From a virus (Duplodnaviria > Caudoviricetes): DNA of 64,000 bases. Below the pieces are notes generated by a model, which was not told the DNA's origin, searched no databases, and was given only the letters and a program-made list of their open reading frames with translations. A program made the translations under genes and the position numbers. This document shows positions 155-14,977 of this stretch, one piece after another (positions within the stretch are counted from its first letter, which is position 1; the number at the start of each line of letters is the position of its first letter). Location of the stretch: the IMG/VR virus record IMGVR_UViG_3300010362_000016, positions 1 through 64,000 of that record; one strand, 5' to 3'.

Positions 155-184
155 ATTGTAGCACGTACGTAAGTACGTTGTCAA
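155..184 (-). promoter_or_regulatory. Repeat promoter/operator copy 1
   Basis: + strand attgta gc acgtacgt aagtacgt tgtcaa = TTGACA-18-TACAAT on minus. Confidence 0.85.
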
Positions 185-194
185 CCTGACGCCC

Positions 195-818
195 CTACCG
201 GGGCGCCAGGGGTTCCTCCTTCCATTCCGCCAGCCGCTTCCGCTGCCACGCGATATATTTCCGGATCTCTTCAACCTCGGCCCTCACGGCGTCGGCTCTC
301 TTCCCATTCGCCGCCGCGACGTAATCCAGAATCGTCGCCGTCTCCCGGATCGTCCAGTCCACCGTGATCGCATGGCTGTAGCAGTCCAGCAACTCACCGG
401 CCTTGTGAGGGTTGGCGTAGTGGGCCCGGGGCTTCGTGTCGTATTTGCCCTGGTGCATCGTGAACTCAACCTCGTGCCAGTACGATCCGCTCCGCTCGTA
501 GCGGTTGCGGGCCGTCCGGTAAACCTTCACCCAACCTCGTGCCTCGGTTGGCTTCTGGAGAAGCTTCGTGATGAATTCTTCCTTCTCCTCCACCAGCGCC
601 TCGGCCCTGGCAATGAATCCCTCGATCAGGTCCGTGTGGGTCTCAAACGGCTTCCAGCCGGAACCCTGACAAACCCCCGAGAAGAATCCCCACTCGACGG
701 TGTAGCCGTGCTTGGCCAGCACTCCATTCGGCAACATCTGAACCGATCCGCAGCCCTGGCAGGAGCCCTTGTGGGTCGCCCTGCCCTTCCGTCCTTTCGC
801 TTCAACCATCGCTTCCAT
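195..818 (-). CDS. Hypothetical protein with Cys/His motifs (CQGC...HGY...C)
   Basis: ORF 195..824; ATG 818 lies 7 nt from the -10 of promoter copy 2. Confidence 0.8.
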   Translation of the reverse strand: MEAMVEAKGRKGRATHKGSCQGCGSVQMLPNGVLAKHGYTVEWGFFSGVCQGSGWKPFETHTDLIEGFIARAEALVEEKEEFITKLLQKPTEARGWVKVYRTARNRYERSGSYWHEVEFTMHQGKYDTKPRAHYANPHKAGELLDCYSHAITVDWTIRETATILDYVAAANGKRADAVRAEVEEIRKYIAWQRKRLAEWKEEPLAPR

Positions 819-825
819 ACTCAAT

Positions 826-855
826 ACTATAGCACGTACGTCAGTAAGTTGTCAA
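826..855 (-). promoter_or_regulatory. Repeat promoter/operator copy 2
   Basis: actata gc acgtacgt cagtaagt tgtcaa. Confidence 0.9.
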
Positions 856-862
856 GCCCTGG

Positions 863-1198
863 TTAATAACCACGCTGCTCCAGCCTCTCCGAGATCATGT
901 CTGCCCGTGCAGTCACCGAGCCGTCCAGGTTCGTCGTATAGTCGGCGACGACGTACCAGGGTTCGTTGCCATAAATAAACCGCACCCATCCTTTGCCGCC
1001 GTCACGGCTGAGGATCAGGTAATCCTCCCCGGTCGTAAACATGGCCCCCAGGATCACGCTCAGGTCGCTCGACGCCTTCACCGTCGTCACCGCGCCGTCA
1101 TACACATCCACCGTGTAACCCGCTTTAATCGCGTCCTGGATAACCGCACGCGCTATCTGCCGTTCGATCTGCTCCCGCCGTTCAATCGTCATCTCCAT
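863..1198 (-). CDS. Hypothetical protein
   Basis: 111 aa ORF; ATG 6 nt from the -10 of copy 3. Confidence 0.8.
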   Translation of the reverse strand: MEMTIERREQIERQIARAVIQDAIKAGYTVDVYDGAVTTVKASSDLSVILGAMFTTGEDYLILSRDGGKGWVRFIYGNEPWYVVADYTTNLDGSVTARADMISERLEQRGY

Positions 1199-1204
1199 AA
1201 CCTA

Positions 1205-1234
1205 ACTATAGCACGTACGTGATGACGTTGTCAA
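1205..1234 (-). promoter_or_regulatory. Repeat promoter/operator copy 3
   Basis: actata gc acgtacgt gatgacgt tgtcaa. Confidence 0.9.
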
Positions 1235-1550
1235 GCTCCCTTGGCCATCTTCCTGAATTCCCGTCCGTCCGCCAGCCTCTCCAAATCTCGTTGGCCGTCA
1301 GCCACTCATAAGCCTCGTCCAGGCCCGCTTCCAGAGCCCTACCCTGGCTCTCATACGGCCCGTCATCCGTGGTCATATCCCCGCAGTAAGCCCCACCAGC
1401 CGTGTCCACAACCGTGCTCACGTACCAGCCGCCCCGGCCCTTCAGCCCCTCGAACTTCGCCGCGTCGAAGTAAACTCCGTCATTCCCCGTCCCCAGGTAA
1501 TACGCGCTGTCCATGTCCACTTCAGCAATCTGCTTCGTCTTCTTAGCCAT
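1206..1550 (-). CDS. Hypothetical protein
   Basis: Likely start MAKKTKQ at 1550; frame reads through promoter copy 3 and stops at the TAG inside its -10. Confidence 0.7.
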   Translation of the reverse strand: MAKKTKQIAEVDMDSAYYLGTGNDGVYFDAAKFEGLKGRGGWYVSTVVDTAGGAYCGDMTTDDGPYESQGRALEAGLDEAYEWLTANEIWRGWRTDGNSGRWPRELDNVITYVL

Positions 1551-1593
1551 CTCTATTCCATCCTTCCCTATGTTTAACATATGTGCGGGGGTT

Positions 1594-1617
1594 CCCTGGC
1601 GGCTTATGCCGCCAGGG
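1594..1617. other. 10-bp GC-rich hairpin between genes
   Basis: ccctggcggc-ttat-gccgccaggg; no U-tract. Confidence 0.5.
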
Positions 1618-2398
1618 TCACCAGCGACTCCAGCGGCACGAAGCTCCCGGCTCCCGAGCCGTGAACCACGATCACGATATTTTTCCGGGCGTCTCCCGGC
1701 CCCTTCGAACCGTCGCAAAGCTTGCACTTCGCGCAACTCGTCCGGTGGCCCATCTCATCCGAAGCCGGACAAGAAATTTCACCCTTCAACACCGGCTGAT
1801 GTTTCCCGCGAACCCGGAACGTTCTCCAGCCCATCGCCACGGCCTGGATGTGATCCGCTTCCGAGTCGCAGGACGCCATCACAAACTCCCGATACGCCTG
1901 GAACTCGGCCTTCCGCCACTGATGCGTGTAGCCCGTCCGCCCGGTCGAAACCACCCGGATCGCTTCCATGATCCCCACCGGGATCAGAACCGGCTCCCCG
2001 TAAGCCCCGAAACGAATCGCCCGTCCGCCAAACACCTCGGCATAACGCCCGGGCTCCAGGAACTCGTACCCGCCCTGCTCGAACTTCTTCCAGATCCGCT
2101 GGGGGCCCTGGCCCACATTTACGTAGCACGTCCGCTTCTTGAAGCCCTTCCCGAGCTTCGAACGGTGCGGGCAGTCAAAGCAGATCGTCACGTCCGATCC
2201 GTCCTTCACTGCCTCAACCGGCGACTTCCACCGGTTCAGAATCCAGATCTGGACCATGTTCCCGGTCTTTCGATTTTTCGTTCGCAGGGTCGCCACCACC
2301 ACGATCTCAGCATTCAGGTAAATCACATACCCAGTAACGTTGGTCTTCCGCTGGCGGTGATGAACACGAGTTTTGCGTACAATTTTAAGAGGTCTCAA
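1604..2398 (-). CDS. Conserved Cys-rich phage protein (possible metal/Fe-S enzyme)
   Basis: Motifs CFDCPHR..CYV, FGAYGEP, GYTHQW, CPA..C..C.LC; GGAG before the TTG start. Confidence 0.7.
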   Translation of the reverse strand: MRPLKIVRKTRVHHRQRKTNVTGYVIYLNAEIVVVATLRTKNRKTGNMVQIWILNRWKSPVEAVKDGSDVTICFDCPHRSKLGKGFKKRTCYVNVGQGPQRIWKKFEQGGYEFLEPGRYAEVFGGRAIRFGAYGEPVLIPVGIMEAIRVVSTGRTGYTHQWRKAEFQAYREFVMASCDSEADHIQAVAMGWRTFRVRGKHQPVLKGEISCPASDEMGHRTSCAKCKLCDGSKGPGDARKNIVIVVHGSGAGSFVPLESLVTLAA

Positions 2399-2427
2399 AT
2401 CTGCTTCTCCAGTTTTGGGATTTAGGG

Positions 2428-2455
2428 GCTTGAGGTTGCGTCAACAACCTCAAGC
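2428..2455 (-). other. 11-bp hairpin in the 5' leader of the copy 4 transcript
   Basis: gcttgaggttg-cgtcaa-caacctcaagc. Confidence 0.55.
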
Positions 2456-2472
2456 GCCGTTCAACAATCACT

Positions 2473-2502
2473 ACTATAGCACGTACGTCAGTAAGTTGTC
2501 AA
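2473..2502 (-). promoter_or_regulatory. Repeat promoter/operator copy 4
   Basis: actata gc acgtacgt cagtaagt tgtcaa (identical to copy 2). Confidence 0.9.
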
Positions 2503-3293
2503 GCCCGGCTTAACCGTCCGAAGTACGCCCGCTCCGTCGCCTCGCAGAAGGCGCAAATTTCAACTCCGCCCTCCTTGCTTCCGAGGGGCCGATAGCACCC
2601 GCAGTAGCAGCAATTCACGTACGTGTCTTCGTTCGTCGCTTGGGATGCCTCGCACGAGCCCCAGGAGGGCTTCTGACGGCGGTTGCGCCGCGTCCGGGGC
2701 CCACGGTTCCTCGCGCCTTTGCGCGAGGCCTTAGGAGCCTCCCAGGCCCAAACCCAGGGGTCCTCCAGGCTATACGTGTTCGAAACCCAGATCCCGCCGA
2801 TCCACTTCCCGGCCATCTCATTCACGATCACGTACCGGCCATCGCTCATCAGGAAGGTGAACTTGTTCCCCTGGCCGATGGATTCCTCCATCGCCTCCAG
2901 GAACTTCGGGTTCATCAGCGCCTCAGGATATTCGTCCAGGATCGGCTTCAGCAGTTGGACGTAGTGCCACGTGTCCGACATTTCGAGGTTGGTCCGCTCG
3001 ACCGGCAGGACGCCATTGTGAGCGAACGCCACTCCCTCAGAAAGCTGGAACGGGTGGGCGTTCTCCTGGTCGATCTTTCCCGAGGTCGCATACCGGAAGT
3101 GCAGCATGTGCGGCAGTCCAGCAACCTTGCGGTAGGCCTCGATCAGAGTGTCATACCCGAATCCTTTCACGATCCGGAGCTTTCCTCCATCGGCCCAGGC
3201 CAGTCCCCAGGAATCCTGGTTGGTCAGATAAGCATTCAGAATCTTGTCGTCGTTTAGTTGATCTCCTTTGGGAGAGAGAATGATTAAGCACAT
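2499..3293 (-). CDS. Class II glutamine amidotransferase (Ntn hydrolase)
   Basis: N-terminal Met-Cys, HFRYATSG, NAHPF, HNG, SDT motifs; stop is the TGA of the next TTGACA. Confidence 0.88.
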   Translation of the reverse strand: MCLIILSPKGDQLNDDKILNAYLTNQDSWGLAWADGGKLRIVKGFGYDTLIEAYRKVAGLPHMLHFRYATSGKIDQENAHPFQLSEGVAFAHNGVLPVERTNLEMSDTWHYVQLLKPILDEYPEALMNPKFLEAMEESIGQGNKFTFLMSDGRYVIVNEMAGKWIGGIWVSNTYSLEDPWVWAWEAPKASRKGARNRGPRTRRNRRQKPSWGSCEASQATNEDTYVNCCYCGCYRPLGSKEGGVEICAFCEATERAYFGRLSRA

Positions 3294-3302
3294 TACTTAA
3301 TT

Positions 3303-3332
3303 ATAATAGCACGTATGTGGGTATGTTGTCAA
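3303..3332 (-). promoter_or_regulatory. Repeat promoter/operator copy 5
   Basis: ataata gc acgtatgt gggtatgt tgtcaa. Confidence 0.85.
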
Positions 3333-3340
3333 GTCCTCTG

Positions 3341-3380
3341 AAAACGAAAAGAGCGGCCAGGGCTCTCGCCCCCGCCGCTC
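3341..3380 (-). terminator. Intrinsic terminator
   Basis: gagcggc/gccgctc stem with inner gggc-tctc-gccc, followed on minus by TTTTCGTTTT. Confidence 0.65.
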
Positions 3381-3403
3381 TCTCGCTTCCTCCTGACCCG
3401 GAT

Positions 3404-3760
3404 TTACTTTTTCTTCTTCATGAAGCCGGGCAACTCACCCCGGTCCTTCCTGGCCTGGGCCGTGGCCTTCCCGACCTTCGACCGGACCTTCCCCGTCAAC
3501 GCATCCCGCTGACGGGCAATCGCCTCGCTCACCTGCGGCGGAATCGCAATCCGAATCGACCCGTCCTTGCTCACACACTCCAGGAAAATCGTGTCTCCCT
3601 TCTCCCTCTGCCGATAGGTCTGGACGATAAACATCTGGCTCGTCCCCAGCAGCGGCGTCACTGTCCGCAGCGTACTCGGCTTCGTCGAAGTCACGTCCGG
3701 CAACCCGTGCAAACTCCCCAACAGCCGGTCAAACGCATCAGGCATCGCACTCTCACTCAT
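3404..3760 (-). CDS. Hypothetical protein
   Basis: 118 aa ORF with basic C-terminus, coupled to the upstream ORF. Confidence 0.75.
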   Translation of the reverse strand: MSESAMPDAFDRLLGSLHGLPDVTSTKPSTLRTVTPLLGTSQMFIVQTYRQREKGDTIFLECVSKDGSIRIAIPPQVSEAIARQRDALTGKVRSKVGKATAQARKDRGELPGFMKKKK

Positions 3761-3984
3761 CAGTCAGTCCTTTCCCTTTCCCCAATCATCAAAACTGAAG
3801 TGTCATCCAGCCCGTGGGTGTGCCCCTGGTCGTGGAGCATCCGGTGCCGGGCCGGGCAGCAGTCCTTCGCCTTGTCCAACCTCCCAGACGTAACCGTGGC
3901 GCAATCGGGCTGATGCAGCCGCCCACGGCATGCCGTGCAGATCCCCCACGGGTTCCCACACTTGTGTTTCCTCACTCCCCTCAT
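3760..3984 (-). CDS. Small Cys/His-rich hypothetical protein
   Basis: ATG 3984 overlaps the stop of the upstream gene (ATGA). Confidence 0.55.
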   Translation of the reverse strand: MRGVRKHKCGNPWGICTACRGRLHQPDCATVTSGRLDKAKDCCPARHRMLHDQGHTHGLDDTSVLMIGERERTD

Positions 3985-4355
3985 ACCGGCTTCACCGGCT
4001 TCACCCGAAACACCACCTCGTCGCCCGAGCAACCATCACACAGATATCCCCGGAAGATCACATTCCGCTGGCGACCCTCGCTCCATCGAACTCCCTGGTA
4101 CATCCGAACCGGGACGAACAACCCGCAGCCCTTGCAGTCATGCCGGTAGAACCCGCAGTCATGCGGATCTTCCGGGAGCGACCGTCCGCCAAACTCCTCG
4201 GCCCACTCGAACCCTTCCTCCGCGCTGGGAGCCGAATCCCAAAGCAGCCGGAAACCTTTATCCTCCAGCCGAAAAATATCGTCGAACGACAGGTTGCACT
4301 TGGCCAGGGCTTGACGCGTTTCGACGTTCCCGAATATCCAGTAGGGTTTCCTCAC
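3981..4355 (-). CDS. Hypothetical Zn-binding protein
   Basis: CKGC...CDGC pairs; ATGA-coupled. Confidence 0.7.
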   Translation of the reverse strand: MRKPYWIFGNVETRQALAKCNLSFDDIFRLEDKGFRLLWDSAPSAEEGFEWAEEFGGRSLPEDPHDCGFYRHDCKGCGLFVPVRMYQGVRWSEGRQRNVIFRGYLCDGCSGDEVVFRVKPVKPV

Positions 4356-4522
4356 TTCGATCTCCGGGACAACTCCAGCGCTTTACGTTCCGCAGCCACC
4401 CGCGCCACCCGCTCCGCTTCCTTCTCACCGAGTCCCTCGGCTACCGCCGCGTAGAACATCCGGTCGCTATAAGCCACGACCTGGAATCTCTGCTCGACGC
4501 TCAGCTTTCTCATATCCTTCAT
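4352..4522 (-). CDS. Small hypothetical protein (56 aa; not in ORF track)
   Basis: MKDMRKLSVEQRF...RRSK; ATG 7 nt from the -10 of copy 6. Confidence 0.7.
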   Translation of the reverse strand: MKDMRKLSVEQRFQVVAYSDRMFYAAVAEGLGEKEAERVARVAAERKALELSRRSK

Positions 4523-4529
4523 ACTTCAA

Positions 4530-4559
4530 AGTATACCACGTACGTTGGTACGTTGTCAA
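4530..4559 (-). promoter_or_regulatory. Repeat promoter/operator copy 6
   Basis: agtata cc acgtacgt tggtacgt tgtcaa. Confidence 0.9.
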
Positions 4560-4723
4560 GCCCCCAATTTGAAACGCCAGCAACCCCGCCAGGAGTAATG
4601 TGCGGTCCCGGTGCGGCCACAACGAACACAAATGGACCGAAAGTTCTCACCCTGAACGCCACGAATCAGCCACCACAAATCGTGATACCAACGATGCGCC
4701 GAGACCTTATGTGGTTCGCTCAC
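4556..4723 (-). CDS. Small hypothetical protein (CxxC)
   Basis: GTG 4723 overlaps the upstream stop; its own stop is the TGA in TTGACA of copy 6. Confidence 0.55.
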   Translation of the reverse strand: MSEPHKVSAHRWYHDLWWLIRGVQGENFRSICVRCGRTGTAHYSWRGCWRFKLGA

Positions 4724-4980
4724 CGCCCCTCCACGTAGACGTTGTAGCCGAGATCCTGAAGGATCTCGCAAGCCGCCTCACAACCCGAATAAACCTCGTC
4801 ACAGGTCTCGCAGTACAACTCATCCTCGTTGCCGTTCGAGATCACGTCCTCGCCGTGGCCCTCCGGGCACCGGCTCCCCACGGCGATCTGCCCGGCCTTC
4901 AGCAGCCCGTCCAGCAGATCCTGCCGGTCGTCCAACAAAGCCTCCACGGTCTTCCCGTGAATGTAATCCATCAATTCCAT
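4720..4980 (-). CDS. Acidic Cys-containing hypothetical protein
   Basis: 86 aa ORF with GGAGGA RBS. Confidence 0.7.
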   Translation of the reverse strand: MELMDYIHGKTVEALLDDRQDLLDGLLKAGQIAVGSRCPEGHGEDVISNGNEDELYCETCDEVYSGCEAACEILQDLGYNVYVEGR

Positions 4981-4995
4981 TTCGTCCTCCTCCTC

Positions 4996-5280
4996 CTAGA
5001 ACCAGCTATCCACGATGATTCCCGCATGGGCGTCGAACACGCACGGGGCCTTCACGGCCTGGATGGCGTCCGCCCAGTCCGGCCTCGAATTCCTCAGCAG
5101 CTTCGCCACGCTCTGCGCCTCGCGCAGACTGCTAGCCATGTGCAGGTTCGCCACGTTGAAGTACGAGCCCTTCTCGTCGCCGATCTCCAACCGGCGGGTC
5201 GCCCTCACGAAAAACACGCCCTCCGTCTGCGGGTCCCATTCCTTCTTTTTGCCTTCCCAGTTCGTATAAGCAATCTTCAT
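4996..5280 (-). CDS. Hypothetical protein
   Basis: ATG 7 nt from the -10 of copy 7. Confidence 0.8.
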   Translation of the reverse strand: MKIAYTNWEGKKKEWDPQTEGVFFVRATRRLEIGDEKGSYFNVANLHMASSLREAQSVAKLLRNSRPDWADAIQAVKAPCVFDAHAGIIVDSWF

Positions 5281-5287
5281 ACTCAGA

Positions 5288-5317
5288 AGTATAGCACGTA
5301 CGTTGGTAGGTTGTCAA
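5288..5317 (-). promoter_or_regulatory. Repeat promoter/operator copy 7
   Basis: agtata gc acgtacgt tggtaggt tgtcaa. Confidence 0.9.
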
Positions 5318-5353
5318 GCGGAATCTGAAAAGGATGTGGTGGGAGGGACCGGA

Positions 5354-5545
5354 TCAGTTTTCGGGGTAGCCCGGCCCTCCCTTCCCCGTTGCGACGCGGG
5401 ATGGCCAGCATGTTATCACCTGCCGGGCCTCCGGCCCAGGGGTCCATCCAGTCGCCTCCACAGCCCGGCATTCCAGGCTCACCCGCTCCTCGTACGTCAC
5501 CTCGATCTCCAGAAGAATCCTCATCCTCTCCACTCCTCTTCCCAT
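5354..5545 (-). CDS. Small hypothetical protein
   Basis: 63 aa ORF in operon orientation. Confidence 0.45.
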   Translation of the reverse strand: MGRGVERMRILLEIEVTYEERVSLECRAVEATGWTPGPEARQVITCWPSRVATGKGGPGYPEN

Positions 5546-5579
5546 TGCTCAATCGTCCAGTCCAACGGCTGGAGCACCT

Positions 5580-5780
5580 TCACGTCCTGCCGGGTGGGAT
5601 ACCACCAGCGGGATTCCCGCTCCATCTTTCCCACGCACCGGGGCTGATGACGGAGTTGATTTGGGATTTTTCAAGCCACTCCTTCCATTGCCGCGCCGTG
5701 AAGCTCCACCAGCCGCCAAACTGGGCGACGTAGACGAGCTTCACGTTCCTGTCCTGGGCTACGTAGATCCGCGTCATCAT
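5580..5780 (-). CDS. Small Trp-rich hypothetical protein
   Basis: ATGA-coupled to the upstream gene. Confidence 0.55.
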   Translation of the reverse strand: MMTRIYVAQDRNVKLVYVAQFGGWWSFTARQWKEWLEKSQINSVISPGAWERWSGNPAGGIPPGRT

Positions 5781-6154
5781 CGGTCCTCGCTCATCGTCAC
5801 GCGCACCCGGGCCTCACTGAAATCGTCGCCCTTGACCGGCCCGACCGTACACACAAAATTGTTCCGCAGCATTGCTCCGAAGCTGTTTTGCGCATCGACA
5901 TAGTGGGCATAGATGTACTTGTCGCCAACGTGAGTAAGGTTGCGGCTGTAACCCCACGGAAAGCTCGCCGTCGAAGGAGCTTTCAACCGCTGTTTGATGT
6001 GCTGCTGGCAGAGGGTCACCGCCATTGCATCGGCGTCGTCCTGACGGCGCTTCGCCGGATCGGAAGGAAAAATTAGTGCAAGCAAAAATGCCAGGGCGAT
6101 TAGCCCGATACAACCAATGCAACCCTTGTTTATTTGATTAGGATCTTCATTCAT
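5777..6154 (-). CDS. Membrane-anchored hypothetical protein
   Basis: N-terminal hydrophobic helix; C..IK..LKAPSTA.F and VDAQNSFGA motifs of a widespread exported family. Confidence 0.75.
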   Translation of the reverse strand: MNEDPNQINKGCIGCIGLIALAFLLALIFPSDPAKRRQDDADAMAVTLCQQHIKQRLKAPSTASFPWGYSRNLTHVGDKYIYAHYVDAQNSFGAMLRNNFVCTVGPVKGDDFSEARVRVTMSEDR

Positions 6155-6196
6155 TTCATCCTCATTTCATCTACCTTCGTTTCTTAACTCCCTGGC

Positions 6197-6646
6197 CTAT
6201 GCGGCCATTTTGTTTGCGCACTCCGGCCCGATCCCGGCCTCAACCGAGGAGGGCACCGTAAGCTCCCGCCCGCAGCGTCCGCAGTGGTTCAGGTGATAAA
6301 CCTTCACCTTCCCTTCAACCGATTCGCCAGCAGCCAGCTTCGCCAGCGTCCAGGCGAAGGCCTTCACGGGTCCGCTCTCCGGGCCCATCTTCGACGCCTT
6401 CGTCAGGGAGAACTTCTCCCGCTGAACCTTGCCAATGTACGTGTAGTCCGAGGTGTTGTCCGGCCCCGTCAGCACGCTCACGAAGTACATCGGCTCCGTC
6501 CCTGGATAATCCGGGTTGGGCTTCGCAGCCTTCACCTTGTACGTATACCGGACGCCCGTCGAAACGCTCTCCAGGGTGAAAGTGGCGTTGCCCGCCGTCA
6601 TGAAGGTCTTCGCCGCTCCCGCCGTCATCTCATGTTCGATCATCAT
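6197..6646 (-). CDS. DUF6011-like protein
   Basis: C-terminal CGRCGRELTVPSSVEAGIGPEC motif; ATG 6646 is 7 nt from the -10 of copy 8. Confidence 0.75.
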   Translation of the reverse strand: MMIEHEMTAGAAKTFMTAGNATFTLESVSTGVRYTYKVKAAKPNPDYPGTEPMYFVSVLTGPDNTSDYTYIGKVQREKFSLTKASKMGPESGPVKAFAWTLAKLAAGESVEGKVKVYHLNHCGRCGRELTVPSSVEAGIGPECANKMAA

Positions 6647-6653
6647 GAACATA

Positions 6654-8336: not shown

Positions 8337-8340
8337 GCCC

Positions 8341-8580
8341 CTAGCCGAGATCCTTCCACTCCCATTCCCAGGGGCCCTTCCGGGCCCCCAGGTCCGCCAG
8401 GGTCGCTCCCTCCAGTTCAAACGTGCAGTAGTCGTTGTGCCACGAAGCCTCCCCGTCGATGTAATCAGGGCCTTCCCAACGCTCCCTAACATACGTTTGG
8501 ACGTCCTTCAGGCTCGTGAACATCCGCTGCATTTCCTTCAGCCTCAGGCCTTCCTCAGCCACCCGGATTACGTAAGTCAT
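8341..8580 (-). CDS. Hypothetical protein
   Basis: MTYVIRV start, ATGA-coupled; stop 4 nt from the -35 of copy 11. Confidence 0.7.
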   Translation of the reverse strand: MTYVIRVAEEGLRLKEMQRMFTSLKDVQTYVRERWEGPDYIDGEASWHNDYCTFELEGATLADLGARKGPWEWEWKDLG

Positions 8581-8921
8581 CCTTTCCGCTCCTCGCTCCA
8601 GGCCTCCAGCGCTAACTGCGCCTCGACCACCCTCCGGTACTCCGCCGTAGCCCCACAGATCCCCCACAGAGACGCCCGGACCTTTCCCTGCCCGTCCCGC
8701 AGGATGCACCCCTCCGCCTCGTGCGGCCCATCCTGGCACTCGCACGGGCAGTCATCCGCCACCCACTCACACGTCCAGCCCTGCCCATCCGCGAACATCT
8801 CCGCCCGGGCCAGCTTCGCGGCGCAACGGGCCTTACCCGTCCGCCGGGATTCCTTTCGCGGGTCGTACCCAAACCCCGCATTCCGATAAAAGAATCCCTT
8901 CGCCTTCATGTACGCCGTCAT
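8577..8921 (-). CDS. Hypothetical protein
   Basis: 114 aa ORF; FFYRNAGFGYDP..E motif and Cys cluster. Confidence 0.75.
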   Translation of the reverse strand: MTAYMKAKGFFYRNAGFGYDPRKESRRTGKARCAAKLARAEMFADGQGWTCEWVADDCPCECQDGPHEAEGCILRDGQGKVRASLWGICGATAEYRRVVEAQLALEAWSEERKG

Positions 8922-8923
8922 CT

Positions 8924-9259
8924 TCAGTACTCCTCCGCCAGCATGATCGTCAGCACCCTCACGGTCTTCCCAGGATCTTCCGGGTGATCGCTCCCAAACT
9001 CCAAATTCGAATCGTAGTAGTCGATCTTCCAGAAGATCCTCTGTCCTTCATAGTCGAACGCCCCGAAGTCCCGCTCCCCATATGGGTCGTTGCGCCATGT
9101 GAAATCATCGAACGTCTCCACCTTCTCCCGAATCCTCGATTGGTCAGCCGGATCAAGCCCGCTGATCCCTTCGGTCTGGATCAACCGGCCCCCCACGCCC
9201 ATGGCCGTCCGGGCCAGATCATTCAACTTCGCAATCCTCTCCTGAGTAGTCATCGTCAT
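8924..9259 (-). CDS. DUF3768-family protein
   Basis: RIAKLNDLAR, NDPYGERDFG, FWKIDYYD, RVLTIMLAEEY are characteristic of DUF3768. Confidence 0.85.
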   Translation of the reverse strand: MTMTTQERIAKLNDLARTAMGVGGRLIQTEGISGLDPADQSRIREKVETFDDFTWRNDPYGERDFGAFDYEGQRIFWKIDYYDSNLEFGSDHPEDPGKTVRVLTIMLAEEY

Positions 9260-9399
9260 CCCTCGTCCCCCTCGTCCCCCTCGTCCCCTTCGTCCTCCAA
9301 GCCCTCGTCCCAGTCAATCCAGTCGATGACCTGAAGGATCTCGCTTCGCTCGATCCCTTCGATCACTTTGTTTTCCTCCCCTGGTGACATTCCTGGCAT
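9256..9399 (-). CDS. Small acidic protein (DEG repeats)
   Basis: MPGMSPGEENK...EDEGDEGDEGDEG; coupled to neighbours. Confidence 0.5.
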   Translation of the reverse strand: MPGMSPGEENKVIEGIERSEILQVIDWIDWDEGLEDEGDEGDEGDEG

Positions 9400-9554
9400 G
9401 GCATTCTCTTTCCGATCATGAGTTGTTCTTTTTGGACCCGGTCCCAGGTGGCCCTGGTCTGGTGGCCGCAGGTCAGGGTGACGGTCCAGGTCGAACCGAA
9501 TTTCCTCATGGACTCGATCCTGGGCGGGGCTGGAGCCCCGCCCCCGTCCGTCAT
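9363..9554 (-). CDS. Small Zn-binding hypothetical protein
   Basis: LTCGH...CQECH; ATGA-coupled. Confidence 0.6.
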   Translation of the reverse strand: MTDGGGAPAPPRIESMRKFGSTWTVTLTCGHQTRATWDRVQKEQLMIGKRMPCQECHQGRKTK

Positions 9555-9805
9555 CGGACCTCCTTCGCCAGATCGCCCACGCACGCCACGAAGCGAATCC
9601 CATGGACCGGCGTCATCCGGTTCAGCCGGGCGGCGCAGTTCCGAGCCCCCTCCAGGCTGTAGCCCAGGAAGGCCTCCTTCGGATTCGTCGAAACGAACCC
9701 TTCCCCGGCCCGTCCGGTGTACCAGAGGGTTCCGCCCTCGGCGGTACGCCCTACGATGGGAACCATCTCGTTCCCGCTCTCTGCAACAACCACTGGGGTT
9801 TTCAT
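9551..9805 (-). CDS. Hypothetical protein
   Basis: ATG 9805 is 7 nt from the -10 of copy 12. Confidence 0.75.
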   Translation of the reverse strand: MKTPVVVAESGNEMVPIVGRTAEGGTLWYTGRAGEGFVSTNPKEAFLGYSLEGARNCAARLNRMTPVHGIRFVACVGDLAKEVR

Positions 9806-9812
9806 ACTTCCT

Positions 9813-9841
9813 AATATAGCACGTACGTGCGTACGTGTCAA
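9813..9841 (-). promoter_or_regulatory. Repeat promoter/operator copy 12 (17-bp spacer)
   Basis: aatata gcacgtacgtgcgtacg tgtcaa. Confidence 0.88.
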
Positions 9842-9846
9842 GCCCT

Positions 9847-10062
9847 TCACAACGATTTCTTTTTGACCTCCGAGCCAAAGACCAGCCGCCAACGCCTCAG
9901 TCCTTTCTTCGAATGCTTATCGAAGTACTCCTCCGCCAGCTTCTCGTCCGGCGACCGGAACACTGTAGACCACCTGCCCCAGCTTCCCGTCCGCCCATAG
10001 CCCCATCCCCGGTTCACCACCCCCAAAAAGTCCGCCGACTGCACCCGATATTGCTTATTCAT
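9847..10062 (-). CDS. Hypothetical protein
   Basis: MNKQYRV start; stop 5 nt from the -35 of copy 12. Confidence 0.6.
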   Translation of the reverse strand: MNKQYRVQSADFLGVVNRGWGYGRTGSWGRWSTVFRSPDEKLAEEYFDKHSKKGLRRWRLVFGSEVKKKSL

Positions 10063-10369
10063 AATGCGGTCGCTTCTCCGGGAACTCGCCCGGCGCGTTG
10101 TCCTCATGCACATGGGCCTCGTAGAACCCGTCGCTGAGCACTGAGGATTTGTCGCGCCTCCCCTGATTCGGGCCCCAGGCCCTGGAACGCAACCTACGGT
10201 TCAACCTCCACGCGTAGTGGTAAGCCCGATCCGACGACCGGAACATCCGGCAGGTCCTCACCAACGAGCCCGCGTCGTACCACCAGCCGCCCTCCTCCGG
10301 CCCGCCATACATCCGGGCCACGTCATAAACCGACACGAAATAATTGTGCCGTTCGCTTCGCTCACTCAT
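10055..10369 (-). CDS. Hypothetical protein
   Basis: YGGPEEGGWWYDAG motif typical of small phage proteins. Confidence 0.75.
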   Translation of the reverse strand: MSERSERHNYFVSVYDVARMYGGPEEGGWWYDAGSLVRTCRMFRSSDRAYHYAWRLNRRLRSRAWGPNQGRRDKSSVLSDGFYEAHVHEDNAPGEFPEKRPHYE

Positions 10370-10655
10370 TTCCACCACCCTTGGGCGCGTGCTTGGCGCA
10401 AGCCCAGCCCCACCCCAGAATCAATTTCCCCTTATTCCTACAACCCCGGTTCCGCTTGTCGTCCAGGAACGCCTCGCACCGGCCCTGACGGGCCGGGGCT
10501 CCTACCTCCGTGACCACCTTCAACGTCTCCGGCCTGAAGACGTCCCAGTAATGCCCCAGGCTCACGCTCACCAGCCCGTCCTGGGCGTAGCCCAGGACGG
10601 TTCCAATCCGCCCCTGGGAGGTCTCGACCTGGGTTCCTTTTTTGAACTCGCTCAT
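10362..10655 (-). CDS. Hypothetical protein (SH3-like N-terminus, Cys-rich C-terminus)
   Basis: ATG 10655 is 7 nt from the -10 of copy 13. Confidence 0.7.
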   Translation of the reverse strand: MSEFKKGTQVETSQGRIGTVLGYAQDGLVSVSLGHYWDVFRPETLKVVTEVGAPARQGRCEAFLDDKRNRGCRNKGKLILGWGWACAKHAPKGGGNE

Positions 10656-10662
10656 GTCAACC

Positions 10663-10692
10663 ACTATATCACATACGTGCTGACGTTGTCAA
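10663..10692 (-). promoter_or_regulatory. Repeat promoter/operator copy 13
   Basis: actata tc acatacgt gctgacgt tgtcaa. Confidence 0.88.
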
Positions 10693-10967
10693 GCCCCCCG
10701 GTTCACAATCACCTTCATAGTCCGTTCGCTGACGTCACAGATGCGAATCAATCCAAGCTCCGAATCCGGAAGGCTCAACAACTTCTCGATCCCGCCGCGC
10801 CGCCGGACCACGCATTGGGGATGAGCGTACCTCTGGAACGCTCCGTGCTGCGGCTCCTTCGGCAGCGCAACTACCAGGGAACCCGCCGGACAATCGCCCA
10901 CCTTGTAAAAGCCGATTCCTCCGCAAGCGATGCAATGTTCCATGCTTCTAACAGAATGGCTATTCAT
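10689..10967 (-). CDS. Small Cys-containing hypothetical protein
   Basis: Stop is the TGA within TTGACA of copy 13. Confidence 0.65.
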   Translation of the reverse strand: MNSHSVRSMEHCIACGGIGFYKVGDCPAGSLVVALPKEPQHGAFQRYAHPQCVVRRRGGIEKLLSLPDSELGLIRICDVSERTMKVIVNRGA

Positions 10968-10970
10968 GCG

Positions 10971-11198
10971 TCATTTTCCCCAGACGTCCGGCAGCATCAC
11001 CCGGCAAATCGCCTCAAACAATCCATCAATCGCCTTCAGCGGCACGTCCCCAAAATCCGAAACCCCCCGCAGAACAACCATAACCTCCCTGGCGATCATC
11101 GCCTCCTTCAACCCGTCCCCAAGCTCCCGGTACACCGGATCATTAGCCAATTTTTTCGTAATGATCTTGACTTGCGCTTTCTCCCAGTTCTTCGTCAT
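10971..11198 (-). CDS. Hypothetical protein
   Basis: MTKNWEK start, ATGA-coupled. Confidence 0.6.
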   Translation of the reverse strand: MTKNWEKAQVKIITKKLANDPVYRELGDGLKEAMIAREVMVVLRGVSDFGDVPLKAIDGLFEAICRVMLPDVWGK

Positions 11199-11635
11199 CC
11201 CCGCTCCACCACCTTCTCCTCCCGCCCCGGCGTCGCCTCCGACTCGATCTCCTCCCGCCATCTCTCCACGTCCTTCAGGTCGTTCGACCAGTCCTTCTCC
11301 ACGGTCCTCACTTCGCCGCTCAACCGGCTAAGGAACGTCACCACCCTCACATACTTCGCCGTCGCCCGGAACTCCTCCAGCTTCACCCGGTCCACGCAGG
11401 AAACATTCCACCACGCCCCCCTGAATTTAACGATCTTGTCCCCCGTCAGGAACCCGCAAGGGGTATCCTTCACGAACGAGCCCCAGCCCTCTCCAGCCGA
11501 GTGGATCTTCCCGCAGCCGCACTTGCCCTTGTGCCGCGCCGCGAACGGGACCATCCCGTACGCCTTCACCTGCGCGTCCTTCAGCCTCGCGGCCTGAAGT
11601 TCCCGGTAAGCCATCCTTTGTTTCAGCGTGCTCAT
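11195..11635 (-). CDS. Hypothetical protein
   Basis: ATG 11635 is 7 nt from the -10 of copy 14. Confidence 0.75.
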   Translation of the reverse strand: MSTLKQRMAYRELQAARLKDAQVKAYGMVPFAARHKGKCGCGKIHSAGEGWGSFVKDTPCGFLTGDKIVKFRGAWWNVSCVDRVKLEEFRATAKYVRVVTFLSRLSGEVRTVEKDWSNDLKDVERWREEIESEATPGREEKVVERG

Positions 11636-11642
11636 ATCAACC

Positions 11643-11672
11643 ACTATACCACGTACGTCACTACGTTGTCAA
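11643..11672 (-). promoter_or_regulatory. Repeat promoter/operator copy 14
   Basis: actata cc acgtacgt cactacgt tgtcaa. Confidence 0.9.
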
Positions 11673-11674
11673 GC

Positions 11675-11950
11675 TCATCCAAAAAAGCGCTCCAGGGCCT
11701 GCATGATCATCTGCTTCGGAGTCCCTGACAATTCCAGTTCCTCCAGGTCCACGTCGTCCACCGAGTAGGTAGGATAGGCCGGGTAGATTTCCCCGGCCTC
11801 CTCTCTCTTTTTAGCTTCCGCGACGTCCTCGGCGTAGCCGCGCTTCAGGCTGGCCAGCCCGGCGGCTCGTTTCTTCTGGGACCAGAAGAACCACCGCACG
11901 AAACCATCAGGAGCAGCCTCGTCCCGGTAGGTGAGAAAATAAAGCGTCAT
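11675..11950 (-). CDS. Hypothetical protein
   Basis: 91 aa; stop 2 nt from the -35 of copy 14. Confidence 0.7.
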   Translation of the reverse strand: MTLYFLTYRDEAAPDGFVRWFFWSQKKRAAGLASLKRGYAEDVAEAKKREEAGEIYPAYPTYSVDDVDLEELELSGTPKQMIMQALERFFG

Positions 11951-11957
11951 CTCCTTC

Positions 11958-12206
11958 TCAAAGGACTTCCCACCAGCGGCAACTCAACGCCAGCCGTGGA
12001 TCATCGGTAGGCTGACCGTTCGCGTCCAGCGCGTCGGAGATCATCTTCTTATCCCCAAAAGCCGTCAGCTTCACCTCGCCCATCGGCCCGTCGAACATGA
12101 CCGTGATTTTCCTCGCGTCCGGGCTGGTTTCCGTAATCGTCCCGTCCCACTTCACCGGGCTACCCTCAACCTTCATCCGGATGCGTTGTTCCTTCTTCGT
12201 CGCCAT
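11958..12206 (-). CDS. Hypothetical protein
   Basis: 82 aa ORF in a tightly packed operon. Confidence 0.65.
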   Translation of the reverse strand: MATKKEQRIRMKVEGSPVKWDGTITETSPDARKITVMFDGPMGEVKLTAFGDKKMISDALDANGQPTDDPRLALSCRWWEVL

Positions 12207-12452
12207 TTAAACGGCCCCCCACGGTTTGATTCCAGTCAATCCCTTACGGCTGATCAGCTTCGGTTCGCATCCCTTATTCCAGGTCAATGCGCCATCGAAC
12301 TCGCTAACCGTGGTGTCCGGATGGCAGAGGTACGCCACATAGCGCCTGGGGCGTGATGCGTTCTTTACCGCTTCCTCCAACAGAGGCGCACGTCCCCAGC
12401 AGTGGTTGTCTCCAACCACGATCACATCCCAGTCTTTAATGTTTATTTCCAT
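12207..12452 (-). CDS. Hypothetical protein
   Basis: 81 aa ORF; AAGGA RBS. Confidence 0.7.
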   Translation of the reverse strand: MEINIKDWDVIVVGDNHCWGRAPLLEEAVKNASRPRRYVAYLCHPDTTVSEFDGALTWNKGCEPKLISRKGLTGIKPWGAV

Positions 12453-12465
12453 GTCGTCCTTTTCC

Positions 12466-12753
12466 TTATTCCCACAGAACCCTGTGGATCAAAATTGCGT
12501 TGCCCACGATCTCGGTGTTGGCCAGCGTGGAGGCGTTCGAGTTGAACGGTAGGCCCAGGCGTCTGCCGTCCTCGTTCACGATCATGTCCAGGGCAGGCTT
12601 CAACGGAACGTGCTCGATGTAGCCGCCCACCAGGGCCTGGAGTTCCGCCAGGGTGAATTTATCGCCCTTGGGGCTGATATCCGCCATGGAGCCATCCGGG
12701 CGGATTAACCGGGCCGTCCTGGGCGTCTTAGCCGTCTTCTCTGTTTTCTTCAT
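12466..12753 (-). CDS. DUF3846-family protein
   Basis: LAELQALVGGYIE, MIVNEDG, N..AS, IVGNAIL motifs; ATG 7 nt from copy 15. Confidence 0.82.
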   Translation of the reverse strand: MKKTEKTAKTPRTARLIRPDGSMADISPKGDKFTLAELQALVGGYIEHVPLKPALDMIVNEDGRRLGLPFNSNASTLANTEIVGNAILIHRVLWE

Positions 12754-12760
12754 CTCTTCA

Positions 12761-12790
12761 ACTATACCACGTATGTCACTACGTTGTCAA
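12761..12790 (-). promoter_or_regulatory. Repeat promoter/operator copy 15
   Basis: actata cc acgtatgt cactacgt tgtcaa. Confidence 0.9.
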
Positions 12791-13048
12791 GTCCTCGTCT
12801 TCCACATATTCCGGCTCCGGCCACTCCTCAACCGGCGGCGCGGGCCGCTGCTTCTCCAGGTCCCCACACACGATACAACCGTGCTTCGGGCACACCGGCC
12901 CATGAAACGGATCAACCCCGCAGTCAGGACCGTCCAGTTCCACCCCGTCATGACAAACCGGGCAATCCAGCGGACCTTCGGAACCGAAGGCTTCATCAAT
13001 ATGCCGCTGGGTGCATCCAGGCGGCAGGCTCCATCCAAATTTGCTCAT
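12779..13048 (-). CDS. Small Cys-rich hypothetical protein
   Basis: FGWSLPPGC motif; ATG 6 nt from copy 16; reads through the -35 of copy 15. Confidence 0.72.
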   Translation of the reverse strand: MSKFGWSLPPGCTQRHIDEAFGSEGPLDCPVCHDGVELDGPDCGVDPFHGPVCPKHGCIVCGDLEKQRPAPPVEEWPEPEYVEDEDLTT

Positions 13049-13054
13049 ATTCAT

Positions 13055-13084
13055 ACAATATCACGTACGTCGCGACGTTGTCAA
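13055..13084 (-). promoter_or_regulatory. Repeat promoter/operator copy 16
   Basis: acaata tc acgtacgt cgcgacgt tgtcaa. Confidence 0.88.
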
Positions 13085-13086
13085 GG

Positions 13087-13109
13087 CCCGGGGGGCTGGG
13101 CCCCCCGGG
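13087..13109. terminator. GC-rich hairpin between a stop codon and promoter copy 16
   Basis: cccggggggc-tgg-gccccccggg; no clear U-tract. Confidence 0.45.
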
Positions 13110-13112
13110 GTT

Positions 13113-13934
13113 TCACCCCTTGTTCTCCAGGACCTTCGGGCGGGAGATCTTCGTTTGCTTCTCCTCTTTGTATTCACTGTGCTCCGCCACGGTCGCCTTC
13201 ACCTTCACCGTCTCGCCCTTGCCCGCGAAATTCCCGCTGCCCTTGTAAACGATCCGGTTCCCTGCCGCGTCGCGGCACAGGTAAATCGAGGAAGGCGCGA
13301 AGCCGTAAGCCAGGGCCGGGAGGTGAATCACATGATCCACGGTCACCTCGAACTCCATCCGCTTCCCAACCTCACCGACATACTGCGAAGCCATCCGGGC
13401 CTCAGCCTTGGCCTTCAGCCGGTCCAGGCTCCGCTTCGCAGCGTCCACCTGCGGCCCGGTCAGCGAACCCCAGGTCTTCAGCTTCGCCACGAGGTCCGCC
13501 AGGAACATGTCCCCCGGCAGAGCTTCCATTGCTTCCACCAGCCCAGGGTTCTCCGCCTCGAACGCCTCCAGCTTCTTCGCCAGTTCAACTTCCTTCTCGA
13601 TCCTCGCCGCTTCGGCCTTCTCAGCCTTTTTCGCGTCACGCTTCGCCTGAGCCACGTTCAATTTCTCCAGTCTGTCCGCCTTATACAACCGCTCCGTCCT
13701 CACCGGCCCGATTCCAGTCCCCTGGCACTCGTAGCAGGTCCATCCGGTGAATCTCCATGCCATCGATCCGCCCGCGCCGCCGCAGCGTCCGCAGCGATCC
13801 TGATACGAATACTTCGCCGTCCCCTTCGCCTCATCCACGGAATGAACCCGGCCCTGGTACGTCGTCCCTTCCCTGGTCAGCCAGGAAGCCACCGGCTCCG
13901 TCGCCGTCGTCATCGTCTCTACTGTCGTCGTCAT
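13113..13934 (-). CDS. Zn-finger (CxxCxGxG x2) plus OB-fold-like nucleic-acid-binding protein
   Basis: CGRCGGAG...CYECQGTG; C-terminal beta-rich domain; ATG 7 nt from copy 17. Confidence 0.75.
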   Translation of the reverse strand: MTTTVETMTTATEPVASWLTREGTTYQGRVHSVDEAKGTAKYSYQDRCGRCGGAGGSMAWRFTGWTCYECQGTGIGPVRTERLYKADRLEKLNVAQAKRDAKKAEKAEAARIEKEVELAKKLEAFEAENPGLVEAMEALPGDMFLADLVAKLKTWGSLTGPQVDAAKRSLDRLKAKAEARMASQYVGEVGKRMEFEVTVDHVIHLPALAYGFAPSSIYLCRDAAGNRIVYKGSGNFAGKGETVKVKATVAEHSEYKEEKQTKISRPKVLENKG

Positions 13935-13941
13935 ATTTAAT

Positions 13942-13970
13942 ATACTAGCAGACGTACGTGTGTATGTCAA
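13942..13970 (-). promoter_or_regulatory. Repeat promoter/operator copy 17 (17-bp spacer)
   Basis: atacta gcagacgtacgtgtgta tgtcaa. Confidence 0.82.
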
Positions 13971-13998
13971 GCCCCCGGCTAATTATTTTCCCCGAGCC

Positions 13999-14847
13999 TC
14001 ACGCGCACTGCGGCCACATCTCCGCCGCGACGGCCTTCGGCACGTATCCATCCTTCAGCTTGTCCTGGATCTGGACCAGCGACAGCTTCGCCTTGAACGT
14101 GTGATTCATCCGCTTCTCGGCTCCGACATATTCGTCCAGTAGTTCCGGGTTGTGATACCCGGCCAGCAGCAACGCCTCCGGCGGCGCAAAAATACAAAAC
14201 ACGCAACTCAACCTGGGCATCCCCAGGTCATAAGCGAAGTGATACTTCAATCCCTTCTCGCGAATGTAAGCCCACACCTCAACCTCGCTCCAGGCCTGGA
14301 TCGGCAACCAGTTCTCCACAGTCCTACGCCCGTTGCTTACCCTGGTATTAACCTCCAGCACCGGCTTCTCGGCCCGCTTCGGGCTCTCCTCGGCCCGCAA
14401 TCCCATACAATTCAGAATCCTCACCGGGCGTCCCTTATACCGCGAATTGATATTCCCGGGCTTATTCAACCCCGCGCTAAGGTTCTCCATGATGAACTCA
14501 TTGGTCAAGGCCGTGATCAGAACTTCAACCTGACCTCGCTTCTGGTCCGAGGTACACCAGCGGTTCCCGGAGTCCGGCCACTTCCCTCTCTCAAACTCGG
14601 CTTGGTGGAGCAAGTCGCCCTGGGGGCGGCTTACGACATACATAGGCACCCCGTACTTATCGCACTGCTCCTGAGCCAGGGCCTTCGTCCCCTTCCATTC
14701 CACCCTTCCCAGGTCACAGTGAACCGCTTCCACCCTCTCAGCTACTCCTTGATCAACAGCCATCCCGTAAACGTAATCGAGCATCGCGAGGGAGTCCTTC
14801 CCGGCGGAGGTGTTGATCAGGATCACGTCGTATTGCGTCAGGTCCAT
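13999..14847 (-). CDS. Phosphoadenosine phosphosulfate reductase-family (PP-loop) protein
   Basis: SAGKDS PP-loop, WCTSDQKR, GLRAEESPKR, PRLSCVFC; ATG 7 nt from copy 18. Confidence 0.87.
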   Translation of the reverse strand: MDLTQYDVILINTSAGKDSLAMLDYVYGMAVDQGVAERVEAVHCDLGRVEWKGTKALAQEQCDKYGVPMYVVSRPQGDLLHQAEFERGKWPDSGNRWCTSDQKRGQVEVLITALTNEFIMENLSAGLNKPGNINSRYKGRPVRILNCMGLRAEESPKRAEKPVLEVNTRVSNGRRTVENWLPIQAWSEVEVWAYIREKGLKYHFAYDLGMPRLSCVFCIFAPPEALLLAGYHNPELLDEYVGAEKRMNHTFKAKLSLVQIQDKLKDGYVPKAVAAEMWPQCA

Positions 14848-14854
14848 GTAAGAC

Positions 14855-14883
14855 ACTATAGCACATACGTGAGTAAGTGTCAA
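14855..14883 (-). promoter_or_regulatory. Repeat promoter/operator copy 18 (17-bp spacer)
   Basis: actata gcacatacgtgagtaag tgtcaa. Confidence 0.88.
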
Positions 14884-14947
14884 GCACTTCCGCAAAGAAA
14901 CCGTCGAATTTTCGTCCGGCCCGAGGTATCATGGAATTTCATCCTCT

Positions 14948-14977
14948 ATCCTAGCACATACGTGCGTACGTTGTCCA
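14948..14977 (-). promoter_or_regulatory. Repeat promoter/operator copy 19 (degenerate hexamers)
   Basis: atccta gc acatacgt gcgtacgt tgtcca = TGGACA-18-TAGGAT; boxes intact. Confidence 0.7.

Follow-up and report, generated by a model that had tools for sequence, protein, structure and literature searches.

Why should an element of some 30 bp recur in front of one small gene or group of genes after another along the left end of a phage genome, and what does it do there? The listed copies of this element span bases 155 to 14,977 of the analysed window, i.e. bases 1-64000 of the linear 73,452-nt IMG/VR virus record IMGVR_UViG_3300010362_000016 (CheckV completeness 63%). The same phage is represented by a 110,206-nt ENA contig from which the public gene calls were taken, and the phage is present in the samples ENA ERZ27257142, SRA SRR5215473 and JGI Ga0126377. 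The phage is uncultured, temperate, integrase-bearing, tailed and siphovirus-like. As judged from sequence features, its repeats probably define an array of jointly regulated, leaderless transcription units, each under a promoter with an embedded operator.

The initial annotation had listed 19 positions for the element, and each of them holds a copy, always on the minus strand. The consensus is gCTTGACAACnTAnnnACGTACGTGnTATAgT, with a length of about 30-31 bp, and the layout of a copy is TTGACA, a spacer of 17-18 nt, TGn and TATAGT. The TG that had been described for most copies precedes the -10 box in every one. Fifteen copies with an 18-nt spacer fit TTGACAACNTANNNACGTACGTGNTATANT with at most two mismatches, and the consensus allowed up to three mismatches gave 15 matches where 0.00 were expected (100 dinucleotide-preserving shuffles). 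A generic sigma-70 scan of bases 1-17000 found 24 sites versus 5.3 +/- 2.1 expected, 20 of the 24 belonging to the array family. The position-weight-matrix scan of the whole 73-kb record, which had been proposed as a check, recovered the listed copies, found no further full copy and added two partial copies on the plus strand. Apart from these two the copies are confined to the array, the other 58 kb being without them. They are given here from the array head leftwards, followed by the two partial copies, with the distance of the ATG counted from the -10 box of each (open reading frame, ORF).

14948 to 14977, minus strand: outermost (first) copy, with weaker hexamers (TGGACA / TAGGAT) and a good dyad; downstream only a 20-codon micro-ORF, whose stop falls within the -35 of the next copy.
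14855 to 14883, minus strand: 17-nt spacer; ATG at 7 nt; heads the PAPS-reductase-like gene 13999-14847.
13942 to 13970, minus strand: shortened variant, TTGACA-17-TAGTAT; ATG at 7 nt; heads the 273-aa gene 13113-13934.
13055 to 13084, minus strand: ATG at 6 nt; heads an 89-aa gene.
12761 to 12790, minus strand: ATG at 7 nt; four-gene cassette, first gene DUF3846; the stop of the upstream ORF lies inside the element.
11643 to 11672, minus strand: ATG at 7 nt; three-gene cassette.
10663 to 10692, minus strand: ATG at 7 nt.
9813 to 9841, minus strand: 17-nt spacer; ATG at 7 nt; cassette of about six genes including DUF3768.
8307 to 8336, minus strand: ATG at 6 nt; one 80-aa gene.
8032 to 8061, minus strand: ATG at 6 nt; one 247-aa gene.
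7256 to 7285, minus strand: -10 box TAAACT; ATG at 7 nt; two genes.
6654 to 6683, minus strand: ATG at 7 nt; four-gene cassette, first gene DUF6011.
5288 to 5317, minus strand: ATG at 7 nt; three genes.
4530 to 4559, minus strand: perfect ACGTAC-N4-GTACGT dyad; ATG at 7 nt; four genes.
3303 to 3332, minus strand: ATG at 9 nt; heads the GATase_4-like gene 2499-3293.
2473 to 2502, minus strand: the exception, with a 75-nt leader, a GGAG ribosome site and a TTG start; gene 1604-2398 (phrog_2554).
1205 to 1234, minus strand: ATG at 6 nt; the upstream ORF 1206-1550 ends within the element, which specifies its last 10 codons (ELDNVITYVL*).
826 to 855, minus strand: ATG at 7 nt; heads the 207-aa gene 195-818.
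155 to 184, minus strand: -10 box TACAAT; ATG at 10 nt; the cassette leaves the start of the window and continues in contig L028.
22355 to 22385, plus strand: partial copy, TGGAAA-18-TGA-TATAGT; right-hand box ACATACGTG; ATG at 6 nt; 56-aa gene 22392-22562.
25775 to 25805, plus strand: partial copy, CTGACG-18-TGG-TATAGT; box ACGTACGTG; ATG at 8 nt; gene 25814-26047.

The array runs past base 1 of the window. The metagenome contig L028 (9,444 nt) overlaps window bases 1-315 at 98.7% identity and prolongs the same gene string by about 5.6 kb, with two extra copies; the array is about 20 kb long and holds at least 21 copies. The earlier description of one to five small genes behind each copy holds roughly, the real range being one to about seven, with the first copy heading its micro-ORF only. 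The cassette proteins are nearly all without assigned function, the exceptions being those named above as PAPS-reductase-like, GATase_4-like, DUF3846, DUF3768 and DUF6011, and a role in host takeover is a guess from position and promoter type. The boundaries of the copies are sharp and their flanks unrelated beyond about 31 bp, except for the single pair 10663 and 11643, which share 19 of 25 downstream bases. No paralogous cassette proteins were found by all-against-all BLASTP. Cassette paralogy and recent segmental duplication were ruled out by the absence of paralogues and the random flanks, one pair excepted. No other repeated control elements were found in the 15-47 kb region.

The distance between element and gene indicates how the first gene of each cassette would be expressed. 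The ATG opening the downstream ORF lies exactly 6-7 nt past the -10 box in 16 of 21 copies and 9-10 nt past it in three more, all these starts being ATG, and most of the public gene calls use the same codons. No Shine-Dalgarno motif or other ribosome site precedes the promoter-headed genes; most of the internal genes carry GGAGG, GAGG or GGAG at the usual distance. A TANNNT motif a few bp upstream of an ORF is the experimentally validated -10 box of leaderless genes in Deinococcus-Thermus, where a -35 box at 17 +/- 1 bp boosts expression and GGAG-type sites are found on other genes (PMC12340547). The leaderless -10 arrangement was also predicted for mycobacteriophage promoters (PMC4351075). 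The combination of TANNNT at a fixed short distance before AUG with no ribosome site is found in 16 of the 21 copies. Because their ATG is fixed at 6-7 nt, the mRNAs of these copies should be leaderless. The exceptional leader of copy 2473 contains a 10-bp hairpin (2429-2454) of -26.7 kcal/mol (z -4.8).

The spacing between cassettes is equally tight. Gaps from stop codon to ATG at the elements measure 25-58 nt only, and some upstream ORFs finish inside the element (e.g. at 1205-1234 and 12761-12790). Terminator-like sites are not enriched (16 versus 14.3 expected), and with such short gaps read-through transcripts are therefore to be expected. A read-through RNA would offer the first gene of the next cassette neither a 5'-terminal AUG nor a ribosome site, so that first genes would depend on their own promoter, and internal genes would be translatable from any transcript. 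The element itself provides stops in two of the three frames, as TGA (in the -35 box) or TAG (in TATAGT).

The spacer between the two hexamers is conserved as well. Thirteen of its positions are kept (AC-TA---ACGTACGTG), and columns 7, 8, 10, 15, 16, 18, 19 and 21-23 are invariant in the 17 aligned copies with an 18-nt spacer. Since a sigma-70 promoter needs no such sequence, we infer an operator. One way to read the spacer is as a dyad, ACGTAC-N4-GTACGT, imperfect and centred near -23; another is as a palindrome of 8 fixed bp, ACGTACGT(G), accompanied upstream, at an offset of 8 bp, by a weaker box. The palindrome ACGTACGT occurs 15 times in 73 kb, 14 times in the array and once in the 25.8-kb copy. 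The spacer sequence is thus conserved beyond the needs of a promoter and restricted to promoters, as befits an operator. A stem-loop in the RNA was considered as another reading of the palindrome and rejected on energy and absent covariation. The predicted hairpins have a mean minimum free energy of -4.3 kcal/mol and a mean z of -0.84, and are weaker than -2.2 kcal/mol in 8 of 21 copies. The left arm is degenerate without compensating changes and the right box is fixed, and with hairpins so weak and variable, selection therefore appears to act on sequence and not on pairing. A protein-binding operator fits these data better than an attenuator would.

Further evidence on the operator comes from distant relatives. 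Close relatives were sought among 50,697 phage records, which gave no megablast or terminase-size protein match. The exact element pattern is absent from IMG/VR and a looser pattern gave one chance match there. In metagenomes the looser pattern gave 17 single matches, of which only L028, the same phage, is real. Relatives of the D5-type primase were also followed; they are at most 42% identical and have no comparable arrays. The useful relatives came from contigs encoding members of the family of the 273-aa cassette protein (13113-13934), which comprises 174 proteins. The first, the 68-kb Logan contig L041, encodes a 51% identical homologue and has six elements between terminase and portal. 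Each consists of TTGAC(G/T), a 17-nt spacer with AAACCGCATGCGGTTT-like palindromes, TAnnnT, 6-8 nt and ATG, and some have true terminators before them. The second, the IMG/VR contig L049, has a terminase and a portal 76-83% identical to those of L041 and four elements with the consensus AAACnnCATGnnGTTT. Both share the layout of the window (-35, spacer of 17-18 nt, -10, 6-8 nt, ATG), and their 16-bp palindrome (AAACnnCATGnnGTTT) is a different one. This suggests that the architecture is conserved and the palindrome lineage-specific, as an operator/regulator pair would show. An unrelated palindrome in the same layout also argues against a general preference of the polymerase. The sister cassettes stand inside the structural module, from the terminase large subunit to the portal (L041:4277-9677, L049:2800-7570), and a conserved TTTCACCCC motif is found upstream of promoters and terminators alike in both contigs.

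On this evidence the leftward early/accessory arm would be split into at least 21 transcription units, each under the same composite element of about 31 bp. The host housekeeping RNA polymerase would read TTGACA, the TG-extended -10 and TATAGT, and start at the A of the ATG 6-7 nt downstream; the first gene would then be translated from a leaderless mRNA and the later ones via GGAG-type ribosome sites. Transcripts would read through, and first genes would rely on their own promoter. The spacer operator AC-TA---ACGTACGTG would be bound by a phage-specific DNA-binding oligomer that silences the copies together, be it in the lysogen or at the switch from early to middle. More tentatively, the element may also mark joints of gene exchange, given that a leaderless unit requires no further part between its promoter and its ATG. 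The promoter role proposed by the initial annotation is strongly supported by the perfect -35, the TG-extended near-consensus -10 and the fixed register to the start codons. Its co-regulated early cassettes are well supported, and the operator role draws indirect support from the thirteen conserved spacer positions and from the sister lineage with another palindrome in the same architecture.

Candidate binders of such an operator are an XRE-type helix-turn-helix (HTH) protein, a CRP/FNR-like protein and ribbon-helix-helix (RHH)-like proteins. The loci concerned within the window are:

14978 to 15263, no strand: divergent control region that separates the array head from the HTH gene.
15264 to 15641, plus strand: XRE-type HTH gene (P0001), HTH_3 at 23.1 bits versus a cut-off of 23, divergent from the array head.
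27577 to 28197, minus strand: CRP/FNR-family gene with an AGGAGG ribosome site, second candidate binder of the 16-bp dyad.

P0001 lies 287 bp from the first copy. An exhaustive search found 67 relatives, and a 55% identical homologue stands in conserved synteny in contig L050. A word-index search returned no relative of the HTH protein or the CRP-like protein, except the CRP-like protein itself. The CRP/FNR-type regulator is full-length, with a cNMP-binding domain and HTH_Crp_2, and its recognition helix reads ARQKVNQ where Vfr has CSREMVGR. Dimers of the CRP/FNR family bind 16-bp palindromes of 5-N6-5 geometry, and the palindromes of the window and of L041/L049 can both be written in this form. 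The RHH-like candidates are two weak NikA-like matches in the L028 continuation of the array, at L028 1846-2169 and 2166-2411.

Within the divergent control region, 14985-15045 holds GTAACG/CGTTAC repeats and 15050-15185 a non-coding block that is conserved; the palindrome TTGCATGCAA lies at 15226. The repeat cluster includes AACGG-TT-CCGTT and GTAACG-N7-CGTTAC and may be a second set of operators. The non-coding block (GATGCTCC ... CAAAAAAGTCGTTTTGACTTTTCCC) is present in the same orientation at both ends of the array (window 15050-15185 and L028:6100-6215) and again upstream of the HTH homologue in L050:1-120, where a hairpin reading is not conserved.

Several points weigh against the array of repressible leaderless units. 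The dyad is imperfect, being symmetric at 6/6 positions in only 3 of 17 copies. The P0001 ORF was not called by the public gene caller, and the palindrome just upstream of it, TTGCATGCAA, is unlike the array box, which weakens P0001 as the binder. Recognition by the host polymerase and the capacity of the host for leaderless translation are both assumed. Finally, an activator or a spacer contacted by the polymerase would explain the conservation equally well.

The alternative that survives best, in itself unlikely, is that of mobile cassettes of the promoter-early stem-loop (PeSL) type. Here the promoter would be real and without a dedicated repressor, the stem-loop would attenuate read-through and the repeats would be kept for gene-shuffling recombination. 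PeSL cassettes were described in the T4-type phages RB49 and phi1 (Arbiol et al. 2010, PMC2839356; Comeau et al. 2014, PMC4122927). The likeness lies in the many strong sigma-70-consensus early promoters in front of small function-unassigned, ORFan-like genes in a hypervariable region (here TTGACA / 17-18 nt / TGn / TATAGT in 19+2 copies), in the stop codon of the upstream gene abutting the element, and perhaps in gene turnover at the elements, of which signs are seen here only in the sister pair L041/L049. Between their conserved flanks the 5-kb arrays of these two contigs are almost wholly different, with one two-gene block in common. In L041 the shared block starts exactly at the leaderless ATG behind a promoter, and in L049 the same gene is internal with AGGAG before it. 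The block ends at a stop codon, behind which L049 has TTTCACCCC and a copy of the promoter. Homology also persists between the two contigs in an island made up of a promoter only, and the breakpoints fall at an ATG or a stop codon beside elements, few junctions only being available. The unrelated flanks of the window copies would likewise suit mobile cassettes.

Nevertheless, a stable terminating or attenuating stem-loop, one of the features that mark a PeSL, is missing from the array: the hairpins are weak, many near 0, no U-tract stands behind them, terminator-like sites are not enriched, and conservation concerns sequence instead of pairing. The region upstream of the -35 is G-rich (GGGC) in place of AT-rich, no Shine-Dalgarno site follows, and the ATG stands at the predicted +1. 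PeSL phages are lytic T4-type myoviruses, whereas the present phage is temperate and siphovirus-like with a spacer conserved in sequence, as an operator would be. Moreover, a third relative, L043, has the D5 primase, the PAPS reductase, the 273-aa gene and further genes in common but no repeated promoters, its genes forming an ordinary polycistron with ribosome sites. The order of the genes common to the window, L041 and L043 differs in each genome. Gene order is thus shuffled in the repeat-less L043 too, and shuffling therefore does not need the repeats.

The notion of a shufflable library with the repeats as recombination joints, put forward by the initial annotation, has only indirect support. 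It is favoured by the replacement of the array between L041 and L049 and by block ends beside promoters. Against it is the shuffled order in L043, and no close relative of the window phage was found in which breakpoints could be placed. Elements as recombination joints are plausible but unproven, and the junction data fit ordinary selection for breakpoints at gene boundaries just as well. A bolder version, to which only a small probability is given, would make the array a leaderless gene-capture platform. Any ORF joined 6-7 nt behind an element would need no ribosome site of its own for expression, recombination between the copies of about 31 bp or at a motif such as TTTCACCCC would load, unload and reorder genes in the manner of integrons or PeSL mini-circles, and the lineage-specific operator would be a private switch for the library.

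Slightly less probable still is that the spacer acts positively, through contact with the host polymerase or sigma factor or with a phage activator or appropriator, and is needed for firing instead of shut-off. The right-hand box does abut the extended -10 and overlap its TG, box and -10 are retained with a poor -35 in the two plus-strand copies, as they would be in activator-dependent promoters, and the 18-nt spacer is 1 nt above the optimum. However, a perfect -35 with TG and a near-consensus -10 should need no activator, and the same hexamers surround an unrelated spacer palindrome in L041/L049, which argues against polymerase preference unless the hosts differ. That the repeats are a small selfish or mobile DNA element resembling a promoter, with no regulatory role, is very improbable, since its sharp copy boundaries and unrelated flanks are outweighed by an orientation strictly co-directional with the genes, the ATG distance fixed at 6-7 nt in 16 of 21 copies, the want of terminal inverted repeats or target duplications, the other 58 kb being empty save for two copies also placed before genes, and the same layout in the sister lineage.

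How does a repressible leaderless array compare with known systems? The Bacillus phage SPO1 has a multi-promoter host-takeover module with a ribosome site and a terminator per unit, and is lytic. In the Streptomyces phage phiC31, early promoters are accompanied by conserved inverted repeat operators, which are separate from the unusual promoters. The likeness to both lies in many near-identical early promoters, or one repeated operator, in intergenic gaps of the early region. Each stoperator of the cluster A mycobacteriophages (L5, Bxb1) is an asymmetric site of 13-14 bp to which a monomer binds; the sites are found genome-wide and mostly outside promoters and block elongation (PMC9283540). 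They share with the present array a temperate phage, tens of copies of one repressor-binding site, co-orientation with transcription and global silencing. In contrast, the site described here lies within every promoter spacer, is partly symmetric and is missing from the other 58 kb. Cluster O mycobacteriophages (Corndog and relatives) have strongly predicted SigA-like promoters in a long leftward block of small genes, some predicted to be leaderless with the +1 as the initial codon's first base, and a repeated 17-bp palindrome (PMC4351075). They differ in having 8-9 promoters only, palindromes (TGTTCGGNNNCCGAACA) apart from the promoters and no obviously temperate lifestyle. The cI mRNA made from lambda pRM is leaderless (PMC10491246). 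This case and that of Deinococcus-Thermus concern a single phage gene and scattered host genes, not a tandem array sharing an operator. A moron is a gene set between conserved phage genes with its own promoter and its own terminator; the window array has no terminators and gaps of 25-58 nt, whereas L041 does have terminator-promoter units between terminase and portal.

The copy number, held unusual by the initial annotation, is high yet precedented: T4-type genomes have about 50 PeSLs each, and stoperators are numerous in cluster A mycobacteriophages. The array works like the PeSL, SPO1 and phiC31-type early modules but without the features that define a PeSL, and is no new category. Phages with repeated early promoters, with multi-copy operators or with leaderless genes were known before. 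The predicted leaderless start, the operator-like conserved spacer and the sister lineage with a different palindrome are new here, and the leaderless design and the run of the array past base 1 had escaped the initial annotation. If the proposed reading is true, a large accessory-gene library would be run very economically, a single 31-bp element serving as promoter, on/off switch and start of translation and leaving no RNA untranslated. Transcripts would be expected to begin at each ATG and one protein to give a footprint on ACGTACGT, and the elements could supply compact, repressible, leaderless expression parts. The sister lineage appears to have swapped the operator and kept the design, and one and the same gene is leaderless behind a promoter in one case and internal, after a ribosome site, in another. 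Taken together, they would constitute a natural experiment on the recombination of regulatory modules and genes in phages.

The array is a leftward block upstream of the replication genes and is transcribed divergently from them. The remaining landmarks of the window, assigned with Pfam and PHROGs, are:

18130 to 19743, plus strand: D5-type primase.
35105 to 36490, plus strand: PIF1-like helicase.
41148 to 44702, plus strand: fusion of uracil-DNA glycosylase and DNA polymerase (UDG-PolA).
44962 to 46239, minus strand: tyrosine integrase.
56313 to 59513, minus strand: J-like central tail fibre.

The UDG-PolA ORF is a single reading frame of 1184 aa in which an N-terminal domain of the uracil-DNA-glycosylase superfamily is joined to a family A DNA polymerase.

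The host was sought by several routes. The phage sequence contains no tRNA genes, a host search in genome contigs gave no match, and no tail-protein match was found among 301 Planctomycetota genomes. The nearest cultured-phage proteins, from phages of Proteobacteria, are at most 29-36% identical. One member of the 273-aa family is encoded in an Isosphaeraceae metagenome-assembled genome that is enriched for the leaderless promoter pattern (13 versus 1), which is a weak clue only to the host. In this genome (L042:8910-12442) the homologue, together with a 76-aa gene and one for HEPN_AbiU2, separates two pieces of a Fae gene, an arrangement that looks like a small insertion splitting that gene.

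Other repeats were noted along the phage genome. At 46265-46461, a short way upstream of the integrase gene, about 150 bp are flanked by direct TATGCAAA repeats in two pairs, the members of each pair being 11 bp apart; these repeats look like arm-type sites of an attP. Their motif ATGCAAA recurs upstream of the HTH gene, where it forms TTGCATGCAA, the palindrome at 15226. Directly behind the D5-type primase gene (19740-19923), CACTGTCCC repeats may be iterons of an origin. Just outside the array at its far end (L028:6370-6520) stand some ten copies of GGCGGACC(C), tandem or interspersed, which look like iterons of an origin, or of a packaging or partition site, and are followed by a divergent region with ACGTA-rich motifs as well as a 462-aa gene.

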